This document shows, piece after piece, positions 1 through 14,547 of a stretch of 64,000 nucleotides of DNA. Under the pieces are notes generated by a model. The model was not told the origin of the DNA. It worked only from the letters and a program-made list of their open reading frames with translations, and ran no database searches. The translations under genes and the position numbers were made by a program. How positions within the stretch are numbered: the first letter of the stretch is position 1; each line of letters opens with the position of its first letter. The stretch spans positions 1,604,792 to 1,668,791 of the forward strand of contig CBDBQH010000003.1 in NCBI GenBank assembly GCA_965208975.1, in the 5' to 3' direction. The DNA is from Candidatus Poriferihabitaceae bacterium (GTDB taxonomy: Bacteria > Pseudomonadota > Gammaproteobacteria > Arenicellales > Poriferihabitantaceae).

Positions 1-150
1 AACACGGTGTATGGAGCGGTGGCCTGGTTGAGAGCCGATGATGGAGCGGTGGCCTATGCCGAGAAACATGGTCTGTTCGTCATCCGGGCCACCGGCAGCA
101 GCGCCAGCATCATCAATCAGGATGATTTCAAGCCGCAGGTCTTTTCCTGA
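1..150 (+). CDS. 3' end (49 codons + stop) of a coiled-coil/PD-(D/E)xK-like family protein, paralog A; the 5' part lies outside the window
   Basis: Frame 1 reads NTVYGAVAWLRADDGAVAYAEKHGLFVIRATGSSASIINQDDFKPQVFS*. It is almost nucleotide-identical to 2028..2174, the C-terminus of the 1512..2174 CDS. Confidence 0.75.
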   Translation, partial: NTVYGAVAWLRADDGAVAYAEKHGLFVIRATGSSASIINQDDFKPQVFS

Positions 151-226
151 GTCGACGTGGATGGGCACAGAGAGTCGCCCCTGCATTCCCGCACCCACCC
201 GTAATCAAACGCCCCACCCGCCACCC

Positions 227-405
227 GTCATTCCCGTGAAAACGGGAATCCACGACCTTATGGAATCTGTATTACCGACATCGTAGAAGCCTGCCCGCGA
301 ACGCGCCGTCCTGCACCAATCCGTTCATAACCCACAACAATATCCACGCCCCAACCCCGCAACCCACCCCGGATTCCGTCATTCCCGCGAAGGCGGGAAT
401 CCACA
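227..405. repeat. Two REP-like palindromic elements of the ATTCCC-N8-GGGAAT type, at 227..254 and 378..405
   Basis: gtcattcccgtgaaaacgggaatccacg and gtcattcccgcgaaggcgggaatccaca both form perfect hairpins. The same element recurs at 1255, 1399, 51033, 51188, 54238 and 54486. Confidence 0.85.
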
Positions 406-573
406 ATCGATCATCAACCGCAATCGTAACGGCATCCCCGTGGTTGTTCAGGGCATCCCGCCGCCACAAAAGGACCCGGTAAATTAAATTGTTCGCCCTC
501 CATAAATTTTCCACTGTACTAACAAACCAAATAGTTACAATCCTTTGAGGAATAATTCACTACATTAATGTCA

Positions 574-608
574 AGTTTATGATTTATTAGTTTATGATTT
601 ATTAGTAT
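574..608 (+). promoter_or_regulatory. Tandem 15-bp direct repeats (agtttatgatttatt x2 plus a partial third) in the AT-rich region upstream of the hicB-like gene; possible operator/promoter region
   Basis: The direct repeat is read from the sequence and lies about 50 nt upstream of the GAGGAG RBS and ATG at 659. The regulatory role is inference only. Confidence 0.3.
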
Positions 609-658
609 CATGGATATCAGGTTATTGGTAAAATATTCAAGTATTGGAGGAGATAAAC

Positions 659-979
659 ATGAATCGCCAGAAATTTCGTTGCTACATTCGAGGTAGGGAC
701 TCGGATTGGGAGGCAATTTGCACGGATCTGGATATCGCCGTACAAGGTAACTCGCTGGAAAACGCCAAGTCATTACTCAAAGATGCCGTTAATGGTTTCC
801 TCACAGAATTGGAAGATTGGCCGCTAGATGACCAAAGACGATTACTAAAACGCCGGTCGCCTTTTTGGTTGCGGATGCAGTTTTTTATACTCAAAAAATG
901 GCATGACATGAAATCTCTTTCACCCGGAAATGATTCTCGTCAGAAAACAATCTTCTCTGATTTTGCCTGTGAAATATAA
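659..979 (+). CDS. hicB: HicB-like antitoxin (N-terminal HicB fold only)
   Basis: MNRQKFRCYIRGRDSDWEAICTDLDIAVQGNSLENAKSLLKDAVNGFL fits the HicB N-domain pattern. A GGAGGAG RBS precedes the ATG at 659, while the ORF track starts at an upstream TTG at 644. The CDS overlaps the downstream HicA-like gene. Confidence 0.6.
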   Translation: MNRQKFRCYIRGRDSDWEAICTDLDIAVQGNSLENAKSLLKDAVNGFLTELEDWPLDDQRRLLKRRSPFWLRMQFFILKKWHDMKSLSPGNDSRQKTIFSDFACEI

Positions 980-1181
980 AGATGTTGAGCGGGTACTTAA
1001 ACAAAACGGATTTGTCCTCACAAGGCAAAACACTGGTAGCCACCGTCAATTCACTGCAACCATCAATGGGAAAAAACGACTTGTAACACTTGCCTATAAT
1101 CAAAAAAATGAAGAAGTCAAGAAGGGAACATTAGGATCAATCAAGCGCCAGTCTGCACTGGACAAAAATCTGTTCCGATAA
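969..1181 (+). CDS. hicA: HicA-like mRNA interferase toxin
   Basis: VKYKDVERVLKQNGFVLTRQNTGSHRQFTA... matches the HicA/YcfA signature (GW/F-x-R-x-x-GSH-x-F). An in-frame GTG at 969 overlaps the hicB stop and is the preferred start; the ATG at 930 is an alternative. Confidence 0.7.
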   Translation: MKYKDVERVLKQNGFVLTRQNTGSHRQFTATINGKKRLVTLAYNQKNEEVKKGTLGSIKRQSALDKNLFR

Positions 1182-1254
1182 AGTAAAAATGACGAACAGG
1201 GAAAATATAACTTCTGGAGATCATTGTTCTCCAACCATTTCTGCGCCCTAGGCC

Positions 1255-1426
1255 GTAATTCCCGCCTTCGCGGGAAGCGCAAGCGCCGGCTGATTCGGTG
1301 GGGGGTATTTCACGGATGTGGTGGTCTGATTGCAGGCTGGAGAAAATAACAGCGTAGTAGGCTGATTCGGTGGGGGGTATTTCACGGATGTGGTGGGGGT
1401 ATTCCCGCCTTCGCGGGAATCCACAA
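1255..1426. repeat. REP cluster: ATTCCC-N8-GGGAAT-type hairpins at 1255..1280 and 1399..1426, flanking two 37-bp direct repeats (1288..1324 and 1360..1396)
   Basis: ggctgattcggtggggggtatttcacggatgtggtgg occurs twice with a 72-bp period. The ctgattcggtggggg core recurs at 50526 and, inverted, at 54262. Confidence 0.85.
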
Positions 1427-1464
1427 CTGCCAGCATATTCACCACCCAACCCCGCGTTCTCTGA

Positions 1465-1470
1465 TATAAT
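1465..1470 (+). promoter_or_regulatory. Candidate -10 box (TATAAT) inside the leader block shared by paralogs B and C
   Basis: ctgatataatcacc...aacataaaggagtatccttgatcATG is conserved between 1461..1514 and 11911..11955. There is no convincing -35. Confidence 0.35.
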
Positions 1471-1511
1471 CACCAAACCATCAAACCCAACATAAAGGAG
1501 TATCCTTGATC

Positions 1512-2174
1512 ATGCCAACCAACGCCGTACCCACCTCGGACGAAATCTGGAAAATCCTGATAGAAACAAATGCCAGCCTGGACAGAACCAATGCCAGCCT
1601 GGACAGAACCAATGCCACTCTGGACAAAACTGCTGCCAGCCAGAAAGAAACCGATAAACTACTGAAAGAATCCAGCCGGAAAGCCCGCCAGGAAATAAAA
1701 GAACTTCGTCTCAGCCAGAAAGAAACCGACAAGCAAATCAAAAAGACCGAAGCTCTGTTCAATACCCAATGGGGACGGCTGATGGAGAGTCTGGTAGAAG
1801 GAGATTTATTAAAGATCTTGCAGGAAAAGGGAGTGAATGTGGATCAGACGTACCGGAATGTGGAACACAGAGGCCATGGCGATGATTATGAATATGACAT
1901 TGTCGCAGCCAACGGGCACGAAGTCGTAGTGGTTGAAGTCAAGACCACGTTAAAGGTGCGGGATGTGAAAGACTTTCTGGTCAGCGTCGGCAAGTTCACG
2001 ACCCGCAGACCGCAGTATCGGGACAACACGGTGTATGGAGCGGTGGCTTGGTTGAGAGCCGATGATGGAGCGGTGGCCTATGCCGAGAAACATGGTCTGT
2101 TCGTCATCCGGGCCACCGGCAGCAGCGCCAGCATCATCAATCAGGATGATTTCAAGCCGCAGGTCTTTTCCTGA
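1512..2174 (+). CDS. Coiled-coil + PD-(D/E)xK-like (restriction-endonuclease-fold) protein, paralog B; resembles the DUF3782-type architecture
   Basis: An AAGGAG RBS lies 9 nt upstream of the ATG at 1512. The N-terminal ~90 aa are K/E/R/T/Q-rich with 3x NASLDRT repeats. The C-terminal half carries DDYEYDIVAANGHEVVVVEVKT, a D...E-x-K motif. Family naming is from memory and was not searched. Confidence 0.8.
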   Translation: MPTNAVPTSDEIWKILIETNASLDRTNASLDRTNATLDKTAASQKETDKLLKESSRKARQEIKELRLSQKETDKQIKKTEALFNTQWGRLMESLVEGDLLKILQEKGVNVDQTYRNVEHRGHGDDYEYDIVAANGHEVVVVEVKTTLKVRDVKDFLVSVGKFTTRRPQYRDNTVYGAVAWLRADDGAVAYAEKHGLFVIRATGSSASIINQDDFKPQVFS

Positions 2175-2378
2175 AAACAGGGTTGGGAGGCGCATCGGCT
2201 GACCGATGAGTCGCCAAGCGTCTCGTTCCGGGGCTTGAAGCCCAGATACTCAGTCGCTTTTTTGTTCAAAACAGTTTCGTAATCATTCATACGAAAATAC
2301 TCACACTCATTACTAAAGAATGAGTTTTTATATACGTGGCCAGACGGAAAAATTAATCACTCACAACAAGGATCACAA

Positions 2379-2792
2379 GTGAAAAATCTATACATACTTG
2401 CGGCTACGCTTTTCTTGGTAAGTTGCTCTGACGACGCGAAAATTGCGTCGCGTAATCTGTCCAAATCGGCGGACAATTTCGAGATTGACCGGCGCATCGT
2501 TTTCTATAACGGAATTACAGACAGCTACATGCTGACTATCGAAGGAAAGTGTTCAATCGAGGACCAGAAGAATCAATTAGAAGTAACCTGCAAAATCGGG
2601 CATAACCAGTACAAAAAACATTTTCTCGGTTTGTCCGATAATGTGACCTACTTCGCGGAACAATTGAAAACGACTGATGTAAACGTATATCACCATCGTG
2701 TGACGTTTAAACCACAGCAGATCATCCCCGATATTGACTACCGTGGAAGCTTGGAAGAACTGATAGAAAATGATTCAGAAGACCCTGGTTAA
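2379..2792 (+). CDS. Lipoprotein, unknown function
   Basis: The N-terminus MKNLYILAATLFLVSCSDD has a signal peptide with an LVSC lipobox. GTG start. The local region is AT-richer than its flanks. Confidence 0.6.
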   Translation: MKNLYILAATLFLVSCSDDAKIASRNLSKSADNFEIDRRIVFYNGITDSYMLTIEGKCSIEDQKNQLEVTCKIGHNQYKKHFLGLSDNVTYFAEQLKTTDVNVYHHRVTFKPQQIIPDIDYRGSLEELIENDSEDPG

Positions 2793-2913
2793 GTGACAAA
2801 CTTCGCCGGGCTCAATGGGTTTCGGCATAAGCGGGAATCCATCGGACGCAAAACATTACCTGTGATAAACTCACAATCGTTGCCCGGAAACTCGTCTTGT
2901 AGAGATCAATCAA

Positions 2914-3726
2914 ATGTCTGCTGTATCCATTTCACAACACGAGATCGAGGAATTCCAGCGCGAGGGAGCCATCTGCCTGCGTCAGGCGTTCTCTCACGAC
3001 TGGCTGGAGTCACTGGCCGCAGGGGTTGCGAAAAATTTTGAGAACCCCGGCCCATACAGCACACAATATACCCCTCACGGCCAGCCCGGAGGCTTCTACG
3101 ATGATTACTGTAACTGGCAGACTATTGACGAGTATCGTGATTTTGTGATGAATTCACCGGCGGCGGAGATTGCGGCCCGCCTGACCGGCTCGGACTCCGT
3201 CCGTATCTATCATGAGCATGTGCTGGTCAAGGAACCCGATACCAGAGAGGTGACGCCGTGGCATCATGATTTGCCATATTGGGGGTTAGAGGGGAATCAG
3301 TTGTGTTCGATCTGGCTGCCGCTTGACCCGGTCCCGAAAACAGCCTGTCCGGAATTTATCGCGCAGTCCCACCAGTCCGGGGTGATGTATTATCCGAGAC
3401 TTTTCGCCAATCATGAAAACTATGCGAGCGGGCATGACGGGTTTGAAACGATTCCCGATATTGACAGTAATCGCGACCAGTACAATATTTTGTCCTGGGA
3501 TCTTGAACCCGGCGACTGTATTGTATTCCACATGAGAACGCTCCATGGCGCTCCGGCCACGACCGGCCTGAAAACCCGGCGGCGGGGTTTTTCAACACGC
3601 TGGCTGGGAGATGACGCGGTCTATGCCGTTCGTCCATGGACCACATCTCCGCCTTTTGAAGAAATTACATTGACTGCGGGCGAACCGATGGCGCATCCCG
3701 CTTTCCCGGTTGTCTGGACGGGTTGA
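2914..3726 (+). CDS. Phytanoyl-CoA dioxygenase (PhyH) family Fe(II)/2OG oxygenase
   Basis: It has the EEFQREGAICLRQAF N-terminal motif, an HxD in PWHHDLPYW and a distal His in FHMRTLHGAP. Confidence 0.65.
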   Translation: MSAVSISQHEIEEFQREGAICLRQAFSHDWLESLAAGVAKNFENPGPYSTQYTPHGQPGGFYDDYCNWQTIDEYRDFVMNSPAAEIAARLTGSDSVRIYHEHVLVKEPDTREVTPWHHDLPYWGLEGNQLCSIWLPLDPVPKTACPEFIAQSHQSGVMYYPRLFANHENYASGHDGFETIPDIDSNRDQYNILSWDLEPGDCIVFHMRTLHGAPATTGLKTRRRGFSTRWLGDDAVYAVRPWTTSPPFEEITLTAGEPMAHPAFPVVWTG

Positions 3727-10588: not shown

Positions 10589-11533
10589 ATGGCATTGAAT
10601 CAGGGAATATTTTCGCGGCTTGCAAAAACCCGGCAGGCTCTGTCTTCCGGCTTGATGGGATTATTCTCGTCAAGGTCGAAGCTGGACGATCCGTTGTTCG
10701 ACGAGATCGAGGATCAATTGATTATGGCGGATTTGGGGGTGGCTACCAGCCGACTGATCGTTGACAGGTTGCGCGGTGAGGCCAGGTCCGGTCATTATAA
10801 CTCATCGGAGCGGGTGATCAGCGCTCTTGGGCAGATCATTCAGGCCATCCTGAACGAGAATCAGCGCTGTGGCCCTCCGGTTGCGCCCCAAAAACCCCAT
10901 GTCCTGTTGATGGTCGGGGTGAATGGGGTCGGCAAGACCACGACGCTGGCGAAAATGGCGAATCGGTTCAGGCAAAGCGGTCAATCCGTGATGATGGCTG
11001 CGTGCGATACTTTTCGCGCCGCCGCGATTGAACAGCTTCAGACCTGGGGGGAGAGGCTCGATATACCGGTTATTTCCCAGGCGCACGGTTCTGACGCCGC
11101 GGCGGTTGCATTTGATGCGTACAGCGCCGCCAAGGCCAGGGGGGTTGATTATCTGTTGATTGATTCGGCGGGACGACAACATACTCACAGTGACCTGATG
11201 GCGCAACTGGCCAAAATCAAACGAGTATTAGGCAAAACAGAGGAAACCGCGCCGCATGATGTGTATATCACAGTGGATGCGGGCAATGGTCAGAACGCGC
11301 TTTCCCAGGTTGAGAGTTTCAATCGTTCGATTCCGTTGACCGGCTTGTGTGTTACAAAACTCGATGGCACCGCCCGTGGCGGTATCGTGGTCGCGCTGGC
11401 GCACCGATTTGATTTGCCGGTCAGGTATATCGGGGTTGGGGAAGGGGTCGCGGATTTGAAGCCCTTCGACACCGATGAATTTGTTGCGGCCTTGTTGCCG
11501 GACATCGCGGACGTTGATCGTTCCGCGCATTAG
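10589..11533 (+). CDS. ftsY: Signal recognition particle receptor FtsY (short form, NG domain only)
   Basis: [27 protein letters not shown] and [10 protein letters not shown] motifs are present. Confidence 0.93.
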
Positions 11534-11748
11534 CGCACACGAAAGACGATTCGGCCTTTGGTCAGATCATAAGGAGTGAGTTGAACGGTTACCTTGTCTC
11601 CGCGCAGTATCCGGATATAGTGCTTACGCATTTTCCCGGAGATATACGCAGTGATTTCATGCCCGTTTTCAAGTTCCACCCGAAACAACGTGTTGGGCAA
11701 GGCTTCTATGATCGTGCCCTCCATTTCTATGCCTTCTTCTTTTGCCAT
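11530..11748 (-). CDS. infA: Translation initiation factor IF-1
   Basis: [70 protein letters not shown]. Confidence 0.97.
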
Positions 11749-11847
11749 TGGATTACCATGTATTAAACAGGGGCGAAGTGTAAATTAAGCTACGGTTCAG
11801 GGCAAATGAAAACTGGCGCCCAAATTCCGCGATAGAGATTCAGGATT

Positions 11848-11892
11848 GTGTTTTCGGGCGGTGTGTTTTCAGGCGGTGTGTTTTCAGGCGGT
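11848..11892. repeat. 3 x 15-bp tandem repeat (gtgttttcRggcggt) upstream of paralog C
   Basis: Read directly from the sequence. Confidence 0.85.
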
Positions 11893-11952
11893 ATATTGAG
11901 TAGTCTGATTCTGATATAATCACCAACCCAACATAAAGGAGTATCCTTGATC

Positions 11953-12615
11953 ATGCCAACCAACGCCGTACCCACCTCGGACGAAATCTGGAAAATCCTG
12001 GGGGAGACTTCCGCCATCGGTAAAGAAACCGATAAGCGTCTGGATAAAACCAGCCGGGAAATGGCAGAATTTCGTATCAGTCAGGAAGAATCCAGCCGGA
12101 AGGCCAGCCGGGAAATAGAAGAGATTCGCGCCATTCAAAGAGAAACGGCAAAAGAGATAAAAGAAACCACCCGTGGACTGAAAGAAGCCAAAGCCCTGTT
12201 TACCACCCAATGGGGCCAATTGATGGAAAGTCTGGTAGAGGGGGATTTGATAGAGATTCTGAATCAATGGGACATAGCGATTGCCCATACCAGTACCCGT
12301 GTTAAACAAAGGGGTCGAGGTGATGATTATGAATATGACATTATTGCGGTAAACGGACGGGAAGTGGTAGTAGTAGAAGTGAAGACCACGTTGAAAGTAT
12401 CGGATGTCAAGGATTTTCTGGAGAGTTTAGGGAAGCTTACGACCCGTATGCCCTATCATAAAGACAAGATCATTTATGGAGCGGTGGCGTGGTTAAGAGC
12501 GGATGAGGAAGCGGAAGTTTATGCGGCGAAACAGGGATTGTTTGTGATACGGGCGACGGGCAGCAGCGCCCGTATTGTCAATCGGAAAGATTTCAAGCCG
12601 CAGGTCTTTTCCTGA
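11953..12615 (+). CDS. Coiled-coil + PD-(D/E)xK-like protein, paralog C
   Basis: It has the same length as paralog B (220 aa from the ATG). The first 16 aa (MPTNAVPTSDEIWKIL) and the C-terminal core (DDYEYDI..NG.EVVVVEVKTTLKV.DVKDF...GLFVIRATGSSA...DFKPQVFS) match, while the coiled-coil is divergent. Confidence 0.8.
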   Translation: MPTNAVPTSDEIWKILGETSAIGKETDKRLDKTSREMAEFRISQEESSRKASREIEEIRAIQRETAKEIKETTRGLKEAKALFTTQWGQLMESLVEGDLIEILNQWDIAIAHTSTRVKQRGRGDDYEYDIIAVNGREVVVVEVKTTLKVSDVKDFLESLGKLTTRMPYHKDKIIYGAVAWLRADEEAEVYAAKQGLFVIRATGSSARIVNRKDFKPQVFS

Positions 12616-12714
12616 AAACAGTACGGCGGGCACAGAGGGTCGCCCTGAATTTCCCGGATTGATGTGCCAAGGATGAGCCATAAGTGCGGTGATCACCATA
12701 ATGTTACTCTAAAA

Positions 12715-14547
12715 TCATTCCACCGTAACCGACTTGGCGAGGTTTCTGGGTTTGTCCACGTCGGTGCCTTTGATCAGGGCTACGTGGTAGGCGAGAAGCT
12801 GGAGGGGGATGGTGTAGATGATGGGGGCGATGGAGCTGTCGACCGGGGCTACGTTGGTGACCTGGAGGTTTTCCTGATTGGTCATTCTGGCGTTGGAGTC
12901 GGCGAAGACGATCAGTTTGCCGCCGCGGGCGCGCACTTCTTCGATGTTGCCCTTGAGCTTGTTCAGCAGGCGATCATTGGGGGCGACGGATATGACCGGC
13001 ATTTCGTTGTCCACCAGCGCCAATGGGCCATGCTTCAGTTCTCCGGCCGGGTAGGCTTCTGCATGAATATAAGAAATTTCCTTCAGTTTCAACGCTCCTT
13101 CCAGAGCAATCGGATAGTGTACGCCGCGTCCCAGGAACAGGGCATGATGCTTGTCTGCGAACTGCTCCGCAATGATCCGGATTACCGGCTCGAGTTCCAG
13201 CGAATCTTCTACCTTGCCAGGCAATTCCCGCAGTTCCCGCACTAGTCCGGCCTCGTCTTCTGCGGTCAGATTGAATCTGCGGCCAACCACGATGGTCAGC
13301 AGGCGCAGCGCGGTCAGTTGGGTCGTGAATGCCTTGGTCGAGGCGACTCCGATTTCCGCTCCCGCATGGGTCATCAGGACCAGGTCGGTTTCCCGCACCA
13401 GGGCGCTTTCCGCAACATTGCAAATTGCCAGGGAATGTTTATAACCTTCCGCTTTCGCCAGGCCTAAGGCAGTCAGCGTATCAATGGTTTCACCGGACTG
13501 GGACAGGGCGACCACCAGGCAATCGTCCGGCACGGCATGACTGCGGGAATGAAACTCACTGGCGATCTCGACCTGGCAGGGTACGCCGATCTCCTCAAAC
13601 CAGTGAAGGGCTACCATGCCGGCATGGTAACTGGTTCCGCAGGCGATGATCTGAACCGACCGGATGCGATCAAAGACGGCGCCGGCGGCGTTGCCGAAAC
13701 AGGCTTCAAGGACGCGGGTTCCGGTCAGCCGTCCTTCCAGCGTATTGGCAATCGCGACCCCTTGTTCGTGAATTTCCTTGACCATGAAGTGACGATAATC
13801 GCCGAGTTCGGTGGCATCTGCCGATATTGCGCTGACCTTGACTTCCCGGTGGCGGGGTTGACCGGCCAGGTCGGTGATCGTGATATGGCCGCCCTTGATG
13901 TCGACGATGTCGCCATTTTCGAGAATCAGGAACTCCCGCGTAACCGGGATGAGCGCCGACATGTCCGAAGCAATGAATGATTCACCCTGGCCGAGCCCGA
14001 CCACCAGTGGTGAACCTCGTCGCGCCCCGATCAGACGACCCGGTTCATCTGCGCTGATCACGCCAATGGCAAACGCGCCTTCCAGTACCGCGAGTGTTTT
14101 CTTGACCGATTCCAGAAGAGCCAGACCGTCCTGGATATGTCGATATATTTCGTTGACGATGACTTCGGTGTCGGTGTCGGAGTGAAATTCCATGCCGTCT
14201 GTGATTTGCGCCTGCCTGAGGCTCTCGTGGTTCTCGATAATGCCATTGCAGACCAGCGCGATTCGACCGCCGCTGATGTGAGGGTGGGCGTTGATTTCCG
14301 TGGGCGGGCCATGGGTTGCCCAGCGGGTATGGGCGATGCCGGTTGTGCCGTGCATGGCGCCGGAACCGGAAAGCGCCTTTTCCAGTTCGATGATTTTACC
14401 GACGGTGCGGGTACGTGAAATATTCCGCTCCGGGCCGATTAGCGCAATACCGGCAGAATCGTATCCCCGGTATTCCAGACGTTTCAGTCCGTCCAGCAGG
14501 AGCGGAAGAACATCAGACTTTGCGGCTGCGCCGACTATCCCGCACAT
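12715..14547 (-). CDS. glmS: Glutamine--fructose-6-phosphate aminotransferase
   Basis: It starts MCGIVGA, ends ...NLAKSVTVE and is 610 aa long. Confidence 0.97.
   Translation of the reverse strand: MCGIVGAAAKSDVLPLLLDGLKRLEYRGYDSAGIALIGPERNISRTRTVGKIIELEKALSGSGAMHGTTGIAHTRWATHGPPTEINAHPHISGGRIALVCNGIIENHESLRQAQITDGMEFHSDTDTEVIVNEIYRHIQDGLALLESVKKTLAVLEGAFAIGVISADEPGRLIGARRGSPLVVGLGQGESFIASDMSALIPVTREFLILENGDIVDIKGGHITITDLAGQPRHREVKVSAISADATELGDYRHFMVKEIHEQGVAIANTLEGRLTGTRVLEACFGNAAGAVFDRIRSVQIIACGTSYHAGMVALHWFEEIGVPCQVEIASEFHSRSHAVPDDCLVVALSQSGETIDTLTALGLAKAEGYKHSLAICNVAESALVRETDLVLMTHAGAEIGVASTKAFTTQLTALRLLTIVVGRRFNLTAEDEAGLVRELRELPGKVEDSLELEPVIRIIAEQFADKHHALFLGRGVHYPIALEGALKLKEISYIHAEAYPAGELKHGPLALVDNEMPVISVAPNDRLLNKLKGNIEEVRARGGKLIVFADSNARMTNQENLQVTNVAPVDSSIAPIIYTIPLQLLAYHVALIKGTDVDKPRNLAKSVTVE

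Follow-up and report, generated by a model that had tools for sequence, protein, structure and literature searches.

Rpn of Escherichia coli (YhgA-like, PDDEXK_2) exemplifies multi-copy chromosomal PD-(D/E)xK paralogs that lack an operon partner and vary in a second region. Another prokaryotic PD-(D/E)xK endonuclease family is distinguished by N-terminal coiled-coil stalks, catalogued as DUF3782 (Hartmann et al. 2016, eLife 5:e11861, PMC4786415). The bacterial DUF3782 members are without nonad β-layers, and the same β-layer motif occurs in DUF1640 membrane proteins (PMC4786415). That work treats coiled-coil structure only and reports no function for the DUF3782 endonucleases. Here we describe an array of stalked-nuclease genes at the start of a 64,000-nucleotide stretch of DNA (C3:1604792-1668791, hereafter the window) from a Candidatus Poriferihabitaceae bacterium, whose genome comprises 2.93 Mb in three contigs at 54% GC. 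The last two genes of the array, copies A and B, bracket a hicBA toxin–antitoxin cassette and two clusters of repetitive extragenic palindromic (REP) hairpins. The family is already catalogued (DUF3782/DUF8196), and this locus is the young end of its array.

We consider it probable that the locus is a stalked-nuclease array homogenised by gene conversion, with REP-dense spacers, a mobile hicBA cassette and a putative conflict nuclease as its product. The initial annotation, made from the sequence of the window, had assigned the protein family no function. In agreement with this, our database search identified a catalogued family, and no characterised housekeeping protein. Coordinates of the features are collected in Table 1.

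Ten stalked-nuclease genes in one genome

Ten intact paralogs were located in the genome by tblastn. Four of them, c4 (C3:1601925), c5 (1603210), A and B, form a head-to-tail array whose downstream end is window 1-2174. Paralog c8, which belongs to another clade, lies 10 kb further downstream, and the remaining five are scattered over contigs C1 (c0 and c1) and C3 (c2, c3 and c9). The tandem paralogs noticed initially are thus adjacent homologous copies as proposed, but they number four in tandem and ten genome-wide rather than two.

About 60 nucleotides of leader are common to all ten paralogs, including an extended -10 element (TGATATAAT; 1462-1470 in B) and an AGGAG motif 7-11 bases 5' of the ATG. 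A consensus scan for a -35 element in the leader of copy B gave no match. Similarity among all ten genes stops at the stop codon. These features show the paralogs to be predicted self-contained, monocistronic genes, each with its own putative extended -10 promoter and ribosome-binding site.

The encoded proteins are 199-260 residues long. They have in common a tip (P-T-x-D-E-I-W-K-I-L), a junction (ALFNTQWGxLMESLVEGDL) and a C-terminal domain of 130 residues, and differ in the modules of the intervening stalk, which are NATLDKT-type heptads, SREMEEFRISQEESSRKA-type 18-mers or KETDRRM heptads. From tip Trp to junction Trp, the stalks measure 53, 67 (A), 74 (B), 74, 85, 88, 92, 106, 110 and 114 residues. 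The ten genes therefore have nine stalk lengths, the difference between A and B being a single heptad. The nuclease domains form four clades with very young pairs inside each. Between clades, the synonymous divergence (dS) is ~0.7-1.3 and the ratio of nonsynonymous to synonymous divergence (dN/dS) 0.11-0.23, so that all clades are old and under purifying selection.

Copies A and B

Window positions 1-150 and 2025-2174 are equal at 149 of 150 bases, the sole mismatch being C at 20 and T at 2044. This match cannot be due to chance. The same TGA closes both stretches, and the DNA 3' of the stop is unrelated. The initial annotation had paired 1-150 with 2028-2174 and placed the end of identity at the stop codon; the match and its end are as described, while the second stretch begins at 2025. 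Copy A, of which the window holds only the last codons, might have been a short fragment. It proved to be a full-length, intact open reading frame (ORF) of 213 residues, 96.8% identical to copy B across residues 1-220 (tblastn).

The identity tract of the two copies extends over ~750 nucleotides (C3:1604190-1604941 versus 1606192-1606965) and is 99.6% identical. On the left it ends in the right arm of a REP hairpin ~110 nucleotides 5' of the ATG (for B, the REP at 1402-1419), and on the right at the stop codon. It contains three differences in all, namely a 1-nucleotide indel in the leader, one 21-nucleotide unit encoding NASLDRT and one synonymous C/T substitution. Contigs from Logan fold copy A onto copy B. 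Their apparent signal of 21 nucleotides left out represents A placed on B, and the joints fall in REPs.

Probable gene conversion between paralogs

The earlier suggestion that either a recent tandem duplication or gene conversion accounts for the pair agrees with identity across the entire promoter-to-stop unit, and the unrelated flanks on both sides favour conversion. The 3' flank of A ('type X') is common to c4 and c5, while that of B ('type Y') is common to c2 and to family genes of a sister species (L122, G005). The DNA upstream of the two REPs that bound the tract is likewise unrelated. A segmental duplication should carry flank, whereas a conversion tract should end at the limit of paralog homology. 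The latter is seen, and conversion is therefore favoured.

Near-identical pairs are also found at dispersed loci (c0 and c4, on different contigs; c1 and c8; c2 and c3), and in each pair similarity is confined to the stretch between about -70 and the stop codon. The C-terminal domains of c0 and c4 are identical as proteins, with a dS of 0.011. In the triplication that produced c0, c1 and c9, the family gene is 94-98% identical and the flanks 75-91%. When nuclease domains of this genome and of its congeners are placed in a maximum-likelihood tree, tight clusters specific to single genomes appear inside a small number of older clades, which the genomes have in common.

The ends of the genes are more uniform than their interiors. 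Across the four clades, where two sequences have the same residue in the last ten codons, the codon is also the same in 48 of 51 comparisons, against fractions of 0.39-0.74 in other ten-codon windows. In most clade pairs, mismatches are also scarcer in the first 39 and last 36 nucleotides than in the core (Fisher p 0.01 to 1e-6). This uniformity at both ends is in line with the initial proposal that conversion maintains the ends of the family.

Together, the evidence favours repeated inter-paralog gene conversion over the promoter-to-stop unit, probably combined with slippage of stalk repeat units. A and B would most likely have been made identical by conversion of a pre-existing paralog rather than through a duplicated segment. 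Paralog homology would set the bounds of the copied tract, at the REP and promoter on the left and at the stop codon on the right. This process would also act between dispersed loci and keep the 5' and 3' gene ends uniform, and slippage or unequal exchange of the 21- and 54-nucleotide units would alter stalk length in coiled-coil-compatible steps.

The hicBA cassette

The genome has no second copy of window 411-1270, within which 478-1245 has a GC content of ~38%. The hicBA cassette in this stretch was absent from the 40 related species genomes searched, and an identical copy is found in contigs of three runs, which belong to two studies. The toxin gene is supported by PF07927 (2.2e-12, 47.3 bits against a cut-off of 27) and by phrog_353, annotated 'toxin' (1.4e-13). 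For the 106-residue ORF that precedes it, no HicB domain was matched in Pfam, NCBIfam, PADLOC or PDB sequences, and no recognisable DNA-binding domain was seen. None of its 18 homologs has a Pfam domain, and a single-sequence AlphaFold2 model of low confidence (predicted local distance difference test, pLDDT, 59) gave no significant fold match. The HicB label thus derives from position, the PHROG match and conserved pairing, not from a HicB domain match. Elsewhere, a called HicA gene follows a homolog of the 106-residue ORF in four of six places, and the two others, when checked, hold the same DNA.

Two tandem copies of a 15-bp unit (TTTATGATTTATTAG) lie in the promoter region of hicBA. Cassettes that are 94-97% identical, in run X6 and at locus L122 of the sister species, carry one unit, not two. 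The units are likely to constitute a putative operator with copy-number variation.

The closest homolog of the 106-residue ORF (93% identity) is found in assemblies of another species of the genus. At each of the six places shown for this sister species, a DUF8196 gene of 181 or 188 residues lies directly 5' of the cassette. The L122 cassette and window 436-1235 are 94% identical, while the adjoining nuclease genes are only ~75% identical, which indicates different histories for the cassette and its neighbours. In the species representative (G005), the same Fic-DUF8196 locus is 98-99% identical, and ~80 unrelated bases stand in place of the ~1-kb cassette. The G005/L122 cassette site is located between two copies of a REP-containing unit, with no target-site duplication; the REP unit at window 376-445 also borders the cassette in L122. 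At L128, a more distant homolog of hicBA stands without a family gene in its vicinity.

These comparisons show hicBA to be, as far as sequence can tell, a separately moving cassette that occupies REP-bounded slots and moves between species of the genus. The view that hicBA had settled between the two nuclease copies is borne out by its uniqueness, its AT-rich composition, its absence from relatives and its presence or absence between near-identical genomes of the sister species.

The sister-species locus (L122:1813-2919; also L123, L124 and L126) has a DUF4172-Fic (SoFic-like) gene 5' of the stalked nuclease, with a HigB-like/helix-turn-helix pair and a TrwC relaxase nearby. This Fic/HigB/TrwC locus looks like an accessory or defence island.

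Alternative origins of the copies and the cassette

The adjacency and common orientation of A and B, and the left end of their tract within a REP hairpin, would fit a recent tandem segmental duplication, in which one copy arose from the other by unequal crossing-over between REP hairpins and hicBA was inserted later. The older members c4, c5 and A do have the same REP-promoter junction and part of the 3' spacer, indicating that the array once grew by unit duplication. For the present pair we nevertheless judge this origin unlikely: a duplication would bring some flank, yet the A/B identity halts exactly at the stop codon, beyond which A continues as in c4/c5 and B as in c2/L122. Neither the unrelated DNA upstream of the two REPs nor the gene-only identity between loci on different contigs fits a duplicated segment. 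Copies with unrelated flanks would also be accounted for if the promoter-to-stop unit were mobile in its own right (as a homing-like selfish nuclease gene, for instance) and entered new intergenic sites. Its boundaries are sharp and common to all ten copies, copy numbers among congeners range from 0 to 18, the product is a predicted nuclease, and c8 sits at a synteny breakpoint (infA/glmS, against infA-panB in seven congeners). We nonetheless regard this explanation as very unlikely, since there was no sign of terminal inverted repeats, target-site duplications or a recombinase, c0, c1 and c9 spread inside a segment of more than 6 kb, no orthologous empty site was found in congeners, where synteny is lost, and the family is missing from the phage, plasmid and viral collections.

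That two species of the genus have the same hicBA cassette directly 3' of a family gene raises the question of whether stalked nuclease and hicBA form one functional module, as a three-gene defence or addiction system. We give this reading hardly any credence. hicBA is missing at nine of the ten paralogs here and in all other arrays examined, and the sister-species representative has the same nuclease locus without it. The unequal divergence of cassette and nuclease genes and the distant homolog that stands apart from any family gene speak against a module as well, as do the separate promoters and the REP-rich spacers of 286-456 nucleotides between hicBA and the nuclease genes. The location of hicBA beside a nuclease gene would instead reflect a recombination-prone REP hot spot and not joint function.

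A coiled-coil stalk joined to a PD-(D/E)xK core

A charged N-terminal coiled coil followed by a D...ExK nuclease-like core had been predicted for the 220-residue protein, and alignment, AlphaFold2 and Foldseek together bear out a long N-terminal helix and a nuclease-like core. In the AlphaFold2 model (mean pLDDT 79), residues 9-105 form a single long helix, and residues 112-208 an alpha/beta core at pLDDT 85-96. An alignment of 25 sequences reveals invariant E92, E96, D98, E127, D129, E142 and K144 (E142-V-K144), and an invariant GLFVIRATG motif.

Foldseek, a search suggested at the outset, and Pfam place the core among PD-(D/E)xK and Hjc-like nucleases. The nearest PDB structures are the nuclease domains of Can2, Cdn1 and Card1, followed by AF1548, NucS/EndoMS, R2 endonuclease and Bax1 (E 2e-4 to 2e-2). 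In Pfam, copy B matches Hjc (PF01870) with 26.8 bits against a cut-off of 21.1, through residues 96-148 and model positions 3-51 of 93 only; sub-threshold matches are to AHJR-like, YraN/UPF0102, NERD and Mrr_cat. No NCBIfam model matched copy B above its cut-off, the Hjc equivalog NF040854 scoring 18.2 against 70 bits. In PADLOC, only the nuclease part of the CARF_PDDEXK/Csx1 models matches (~3e-6). A profile search of PDB sequences with the nuclease protein returned designed coiled coils and nothing relevant.

A database search recovered 2,742 homologs at E<=1e-3, many with precomputed PF01870 and/or PF26618 annotation. PF26618 (DUF8196) is precomputed on copy A (P0001) and on paralogs P0002, P0015, P0016 and P0022, and is marked 'weak' on relatives. 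For PF12644 (DUF3782), copy B gave no match at E<=0.1, and its paralogs score 13.6-16 bits against a cut-off of 24.4.

Among 139 homologs, the distance from tip to junction varies between 21 and 132 residues. Sorted by stalk length modulo 7, the classes 0/4/1/5/2/6/3 contain 51/50/20/9/5/4/0 proteins. This order fits heptads with zero to six four-residue stutters (the 18-mer being 7 + 11), suggesting that changes in stalk length leave the coiled coil unbroken. The data show each paralog to combine a conserved tip, a predicted continuous coiled-coil stalk of 53-114 residues and a PD-(D/E)xK domain that appears catalytically intact.

The protein would act as a Mg-dependent DNA endonuclease, which is the weakest step of the proposed explanation. 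A parallel coiled coil would bring the catalytic domains together, and the conserved tip at its far end would serve as an anchor or sensor.

Distribution and possible role

Eight congeners have 0, 2, 2, 3, 3, 10, 12 and 18 copies. None of 17 other genomes in this taxonomic family has a member, and 1 of 16 others in the order does. In a sample of 300 genomes from the whole class, 12 encode the family, as a rule in several copies. The best-matching loci belong to metagenome-assembled genomes (MAGs) labelled Arenicellales or Candidatus Poriferihabitaceae, the latter family name suggesting an association with sponges. Other loci were found in Bdellovibrionales, Thermoanaerobaculia and other Acidobacteria, Spirochaetia, Ca. 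Multivorans, Bacteroidota and Methylocucumis. Tandem arrays are present in several phyla, with 2-8 copies within 12 kb at 22 of 79 loci. In relatives, the arrays are interleaved with DUF1640/CCDC90-like genes, insertion sequence elements and a GmrSD_N protein.

The 124 nearest neighbours of the 79 loci represent 108 Pfam families, the commonest being Fic (4/124) and transposases, and a conserved partner gene was accordingly rejected. Linkage to toxin–antitoxin or defence genes, raised as a question in the initial annotation, amounts to hicBA beside one of the ten paralogs here, with no conserved neighbour. A phage, plasmid or viral origin was also rejected, as the corresponding collections hold no relatives.

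A patchy, fast-changing, multi-copy and partner-less distribution would point to a conflict role, as a defence or selfish element, and not to housekeeping repair. From this patchiness, the flux in copy number, the tandem arrays and the lack of a partner gene, we tentatively put forward a conflict or defence role as the likeliest for the nuclease, though with more doubt than confidence. A further elaboration, which we think improbable, is a single-gene conflict or defence nuclease whose specificity or reach would be set by stalk length. Arrays of quantised length would then be a maintained 'ruler repertoire', reshuffled by slippage and by conversion anchored in the homogenised ends, with REP-bounded slots serving as landing pads for cassette exchange (hicBA) between symbiont species.

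Several observations weigh against the overall explanation. A conflict or defence role is deduced from distribution alone, and apart from Fic and transposases the nearest neighbours of the 79 loci are mostly housekeeping genes. No relatives were found in 50,697 phage records, 72,556 plasmids and 2.9 million viral contigs, so that there is no direct link to mobile elements. PADLOC identified no CARF domain, no other system model and no full-length match to the defining protein of any system. The case for conversion over duplication is built solely on flank structure, and nucleotide-level constraint, through translation initiation or the transcript 3' end, could account in part for the uniform gene ends in place of conversion.

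The locus itself is a case of ordinary accessory-genome turnover, comprising an array probably homogenised by conversion, REP clusters and a horizontally exchanged toxin–antitoxin cassette. It would give a clean natural case in which paralog homology sets the limits of conversion tracts. The family deserves attention for its more than 2,700 detectable homologs in several phyla, with many of the best-matching genomes being uncultured MAGs, and for its up to 18 copies in a genome of less than 3 Mb, with intact catalytic sites, purifying selection and coiled-coil-compatible stalk steps.

REP elements

The hairpins at the locus were defined by the pattern TTCCCG-N4-10-CGGGAA. Four of them surround hicBA, in the order described initially (REPs, a HicB/HicA-like pair, more REPs). 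Segments of the spacer at 151-435 occur 8-46 times in the genome, which contains 139 REPs of the strict pattern (short GC-rich hairpins, ATTCCCG-N-CGGGAAT) in intergenic clusters. About 13 strict REPs lie within 700 bp of family genes, where 0.7 are expected, and the array falls within the most REP-dense 20-kb bin of contig C3. As to whether the copies are always REP-flanked, they often are, but not universally, since five of the ten paralogs have no strict REP within 700 bp.

The genome also encodes a RAYT-like Y1 transposase (PF01797, 35.9 bits; C1:~116200-116700, L120), a candidate REP mobiliser. No REP of the strict pattern was found within ~1 kb of this gene. Given the transposase, the REPs have no need of the nuclease. 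The idea that the nuclease serves the REPs was rejected for this reason, for the copies that stand apart from strict REPs, and for the presence of the family in phyla with other flanks.

Flanking sequences and neighbouring genes

An element of ~45 nucleotides (AAAGCCGGGTTGGAAGGCGCATCGGCTGACCGGTGACC...) follows the stop codons of family genes in different clades and species (window 2175-2220; C3:170360-170405, after c2; L122:3545-3600; L129:4540-4595), and may be a conserved 3' untranslated region or regulatory element. The terminator-like hairpin after B (~2216-2259) has a fold z-score that is not significant, and an Rfam scan of window 1-3000 gave no match. Run X5, a small run of unspecified library type from the same sample, covers 1718-2174, in the coding region common to A and B, at a depth of ~16 and the 3' end of hicA (1070-1301) at 3.6, with no coverage of the next genes at 2300-3000. 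This pattern is no more than suggestive of RNA and may indicate transcription.

Directly 3' of copy B lies an ORF for a lipoprotein-like protein of 137 residues (window 2379-2792), which matches Phage_VG64 (PF25682, 5.8e-54) and phrog_478, annotated as a recombination directionality factor. Its surroundings show no sign of a prophage.

According to our own ORF calls, with selected ORFs scanned, the family genes in this genome are neighboured by housekeeping or large surface-protein genes. Paralogs c0, c1 and c9 are each arranged tail-to-tail with a paralogous gene of ~1,500 codons, by appearance a surface- or adhesin-like repeat protein (C1:473024-478700, C1:662320-667845 and C3:1771973-1777484). 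This convergent gene is part of the segmental triplication, which exceeds 6 kb.

The gene order around c8 is ftsY-infA-c8-glmS (window 10589-14547), while all seven congeners compared have ftsY-infA-panB-gpsA; panB and gpsA are located here at C3:846-848 kb. Their displacement places c8 exactly at a rearrangement breakpoint. In an empty-site comparison of the array and c8 with the seven congeners, the anchor genes were kept and synteny was lost on the paralog side, so that no insertion boundaries could be defined.

A second multi-copy family of small coiled-coil proteins, DUF1640/CCDC90-like, is encoded 3.8 kb upstream of the array (C3:1597706-1598125), at C3:1196529-1200572 and at ~15 other sites. 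Its members, with ~18 tblastn hits in the genome, have an LTTKDD motif of the β-layer type and a C-terminal transmembrane segment. In a congener (G004, L002), such genes alternate with stalked-nuclease genes within an array.

Table 1. Features of the locus, in window coordinates unless a contig is given
Feature	Position	Strand	Description
Copy A, last 49 codons and stop	1..150; full gene C3:1604300-1604941 = window -491..150	+	Intact ORF, tblastn
REP-rich spacer after A	151..435	.	Type X 3' flank (as c4, c5); REPs 231-248, 382-399
hicBA cassette	436..1235	+	Single-copy here; ~38% GC vs 54% in genome; 94% identical to sister-species cassette
Two tandem 15-bp units (TTTATGATTTATTAG)	576..605	+	In hicBA promoter region, overlapping -10-like TATGAT
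HicB-like putative antitoxin, 106 residues	659..979	+	GGAGG 7 nt 5' of ATG; phrog_12841, 3e-10
HicA toxin	930..1181 (longest ORF; likely start TTG 963 or GTG 969, overlapping hicB end)	+	GSH motif
Second REP cluster	1236..1425	.	REPs 1259-1276, 1402-1419; 37-nt element twice, ~1288-1324 and ~1359-1395
Family leader of copy B	1426..1511	+	Extended -10: TG 1462-1463, TATAAT 1465-1470; AGGAG 1496-1500
Copy B, 220 residues	1512..2174	+	Tip PTSDEIWKIL; helix 9-105; PD-(D/E)xK core 112-208
Three in-frame 21-nt units in copy B	1569..1631	+	NASLDRT, NASLDRT, NATLDKT (copy A: two units)
3' flank after B	2175..2266	+	Type Y, then terminator-like hairpin ~2216-2259 and T run
Paralog c8, other clade	11953..12615 (C3:1616744-1617406)	+	10 kb downstream; at synteny breakpoint

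Comparison with known systems

As in described REP/REPIN and RAYT systems, the genome has abundant GC-rich intergenic hairpins and a Y1 transposase, but here the candidate RAYT gene lacks flanking REPs of the strict pattern. The hicBA cassette resembles type II HicAB toxin–antitoxin systems in its HicA domain, GSH motif, small overlapping upstream partner and mobility. It differs in that the partner has neither a HicB domain match nor a recognisable DNA-binding domain, and in its antitoxin-first gene order.

Rpn of E. coli is comparable to the stalked nucleases in being multi-copy and partner-less, and differs in PD-(D/E)xK subfamily and architecture; no sequence match to Rpn was seen here, and no comparison aimed at it was made. 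Archaeal Hjc (PF01870) has the same E...D...ExK arrangement and is the best Pfam match above the gathering score. Unlike the family described here, Hjc is a single-copy core archaeal gene without a stalk, and its model matches here by half only, with the equivalog failing. The closest solved folds are the nuclease domains of Can2, Card1 and Cdn1 and of NucS/EndoMS (Foldseek E 2e-4 to 2e-3). These are dimeric PD-(D/E)xK nucleases in which a second domain sets the activity. The present family has a coiled coil in place of the CARF or NucS N-terminal domain, and no CRISPR or cyclic-oligoadenylate context.

The DUF3782 study contains no counterpart to the multi-copy arrays, gene conversion, quantised stalk lengths and REP/hicBA context of this locus, and the DUF3782 model matches here below its cut-off. 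In architecture, DUF3782/DUF8196 (PF12644/PF26618) is nevertheless like the family at this locus, with a coiled-coil stalk that is without nonad β-layers and is followed by a PD-(D/E)xK domain.

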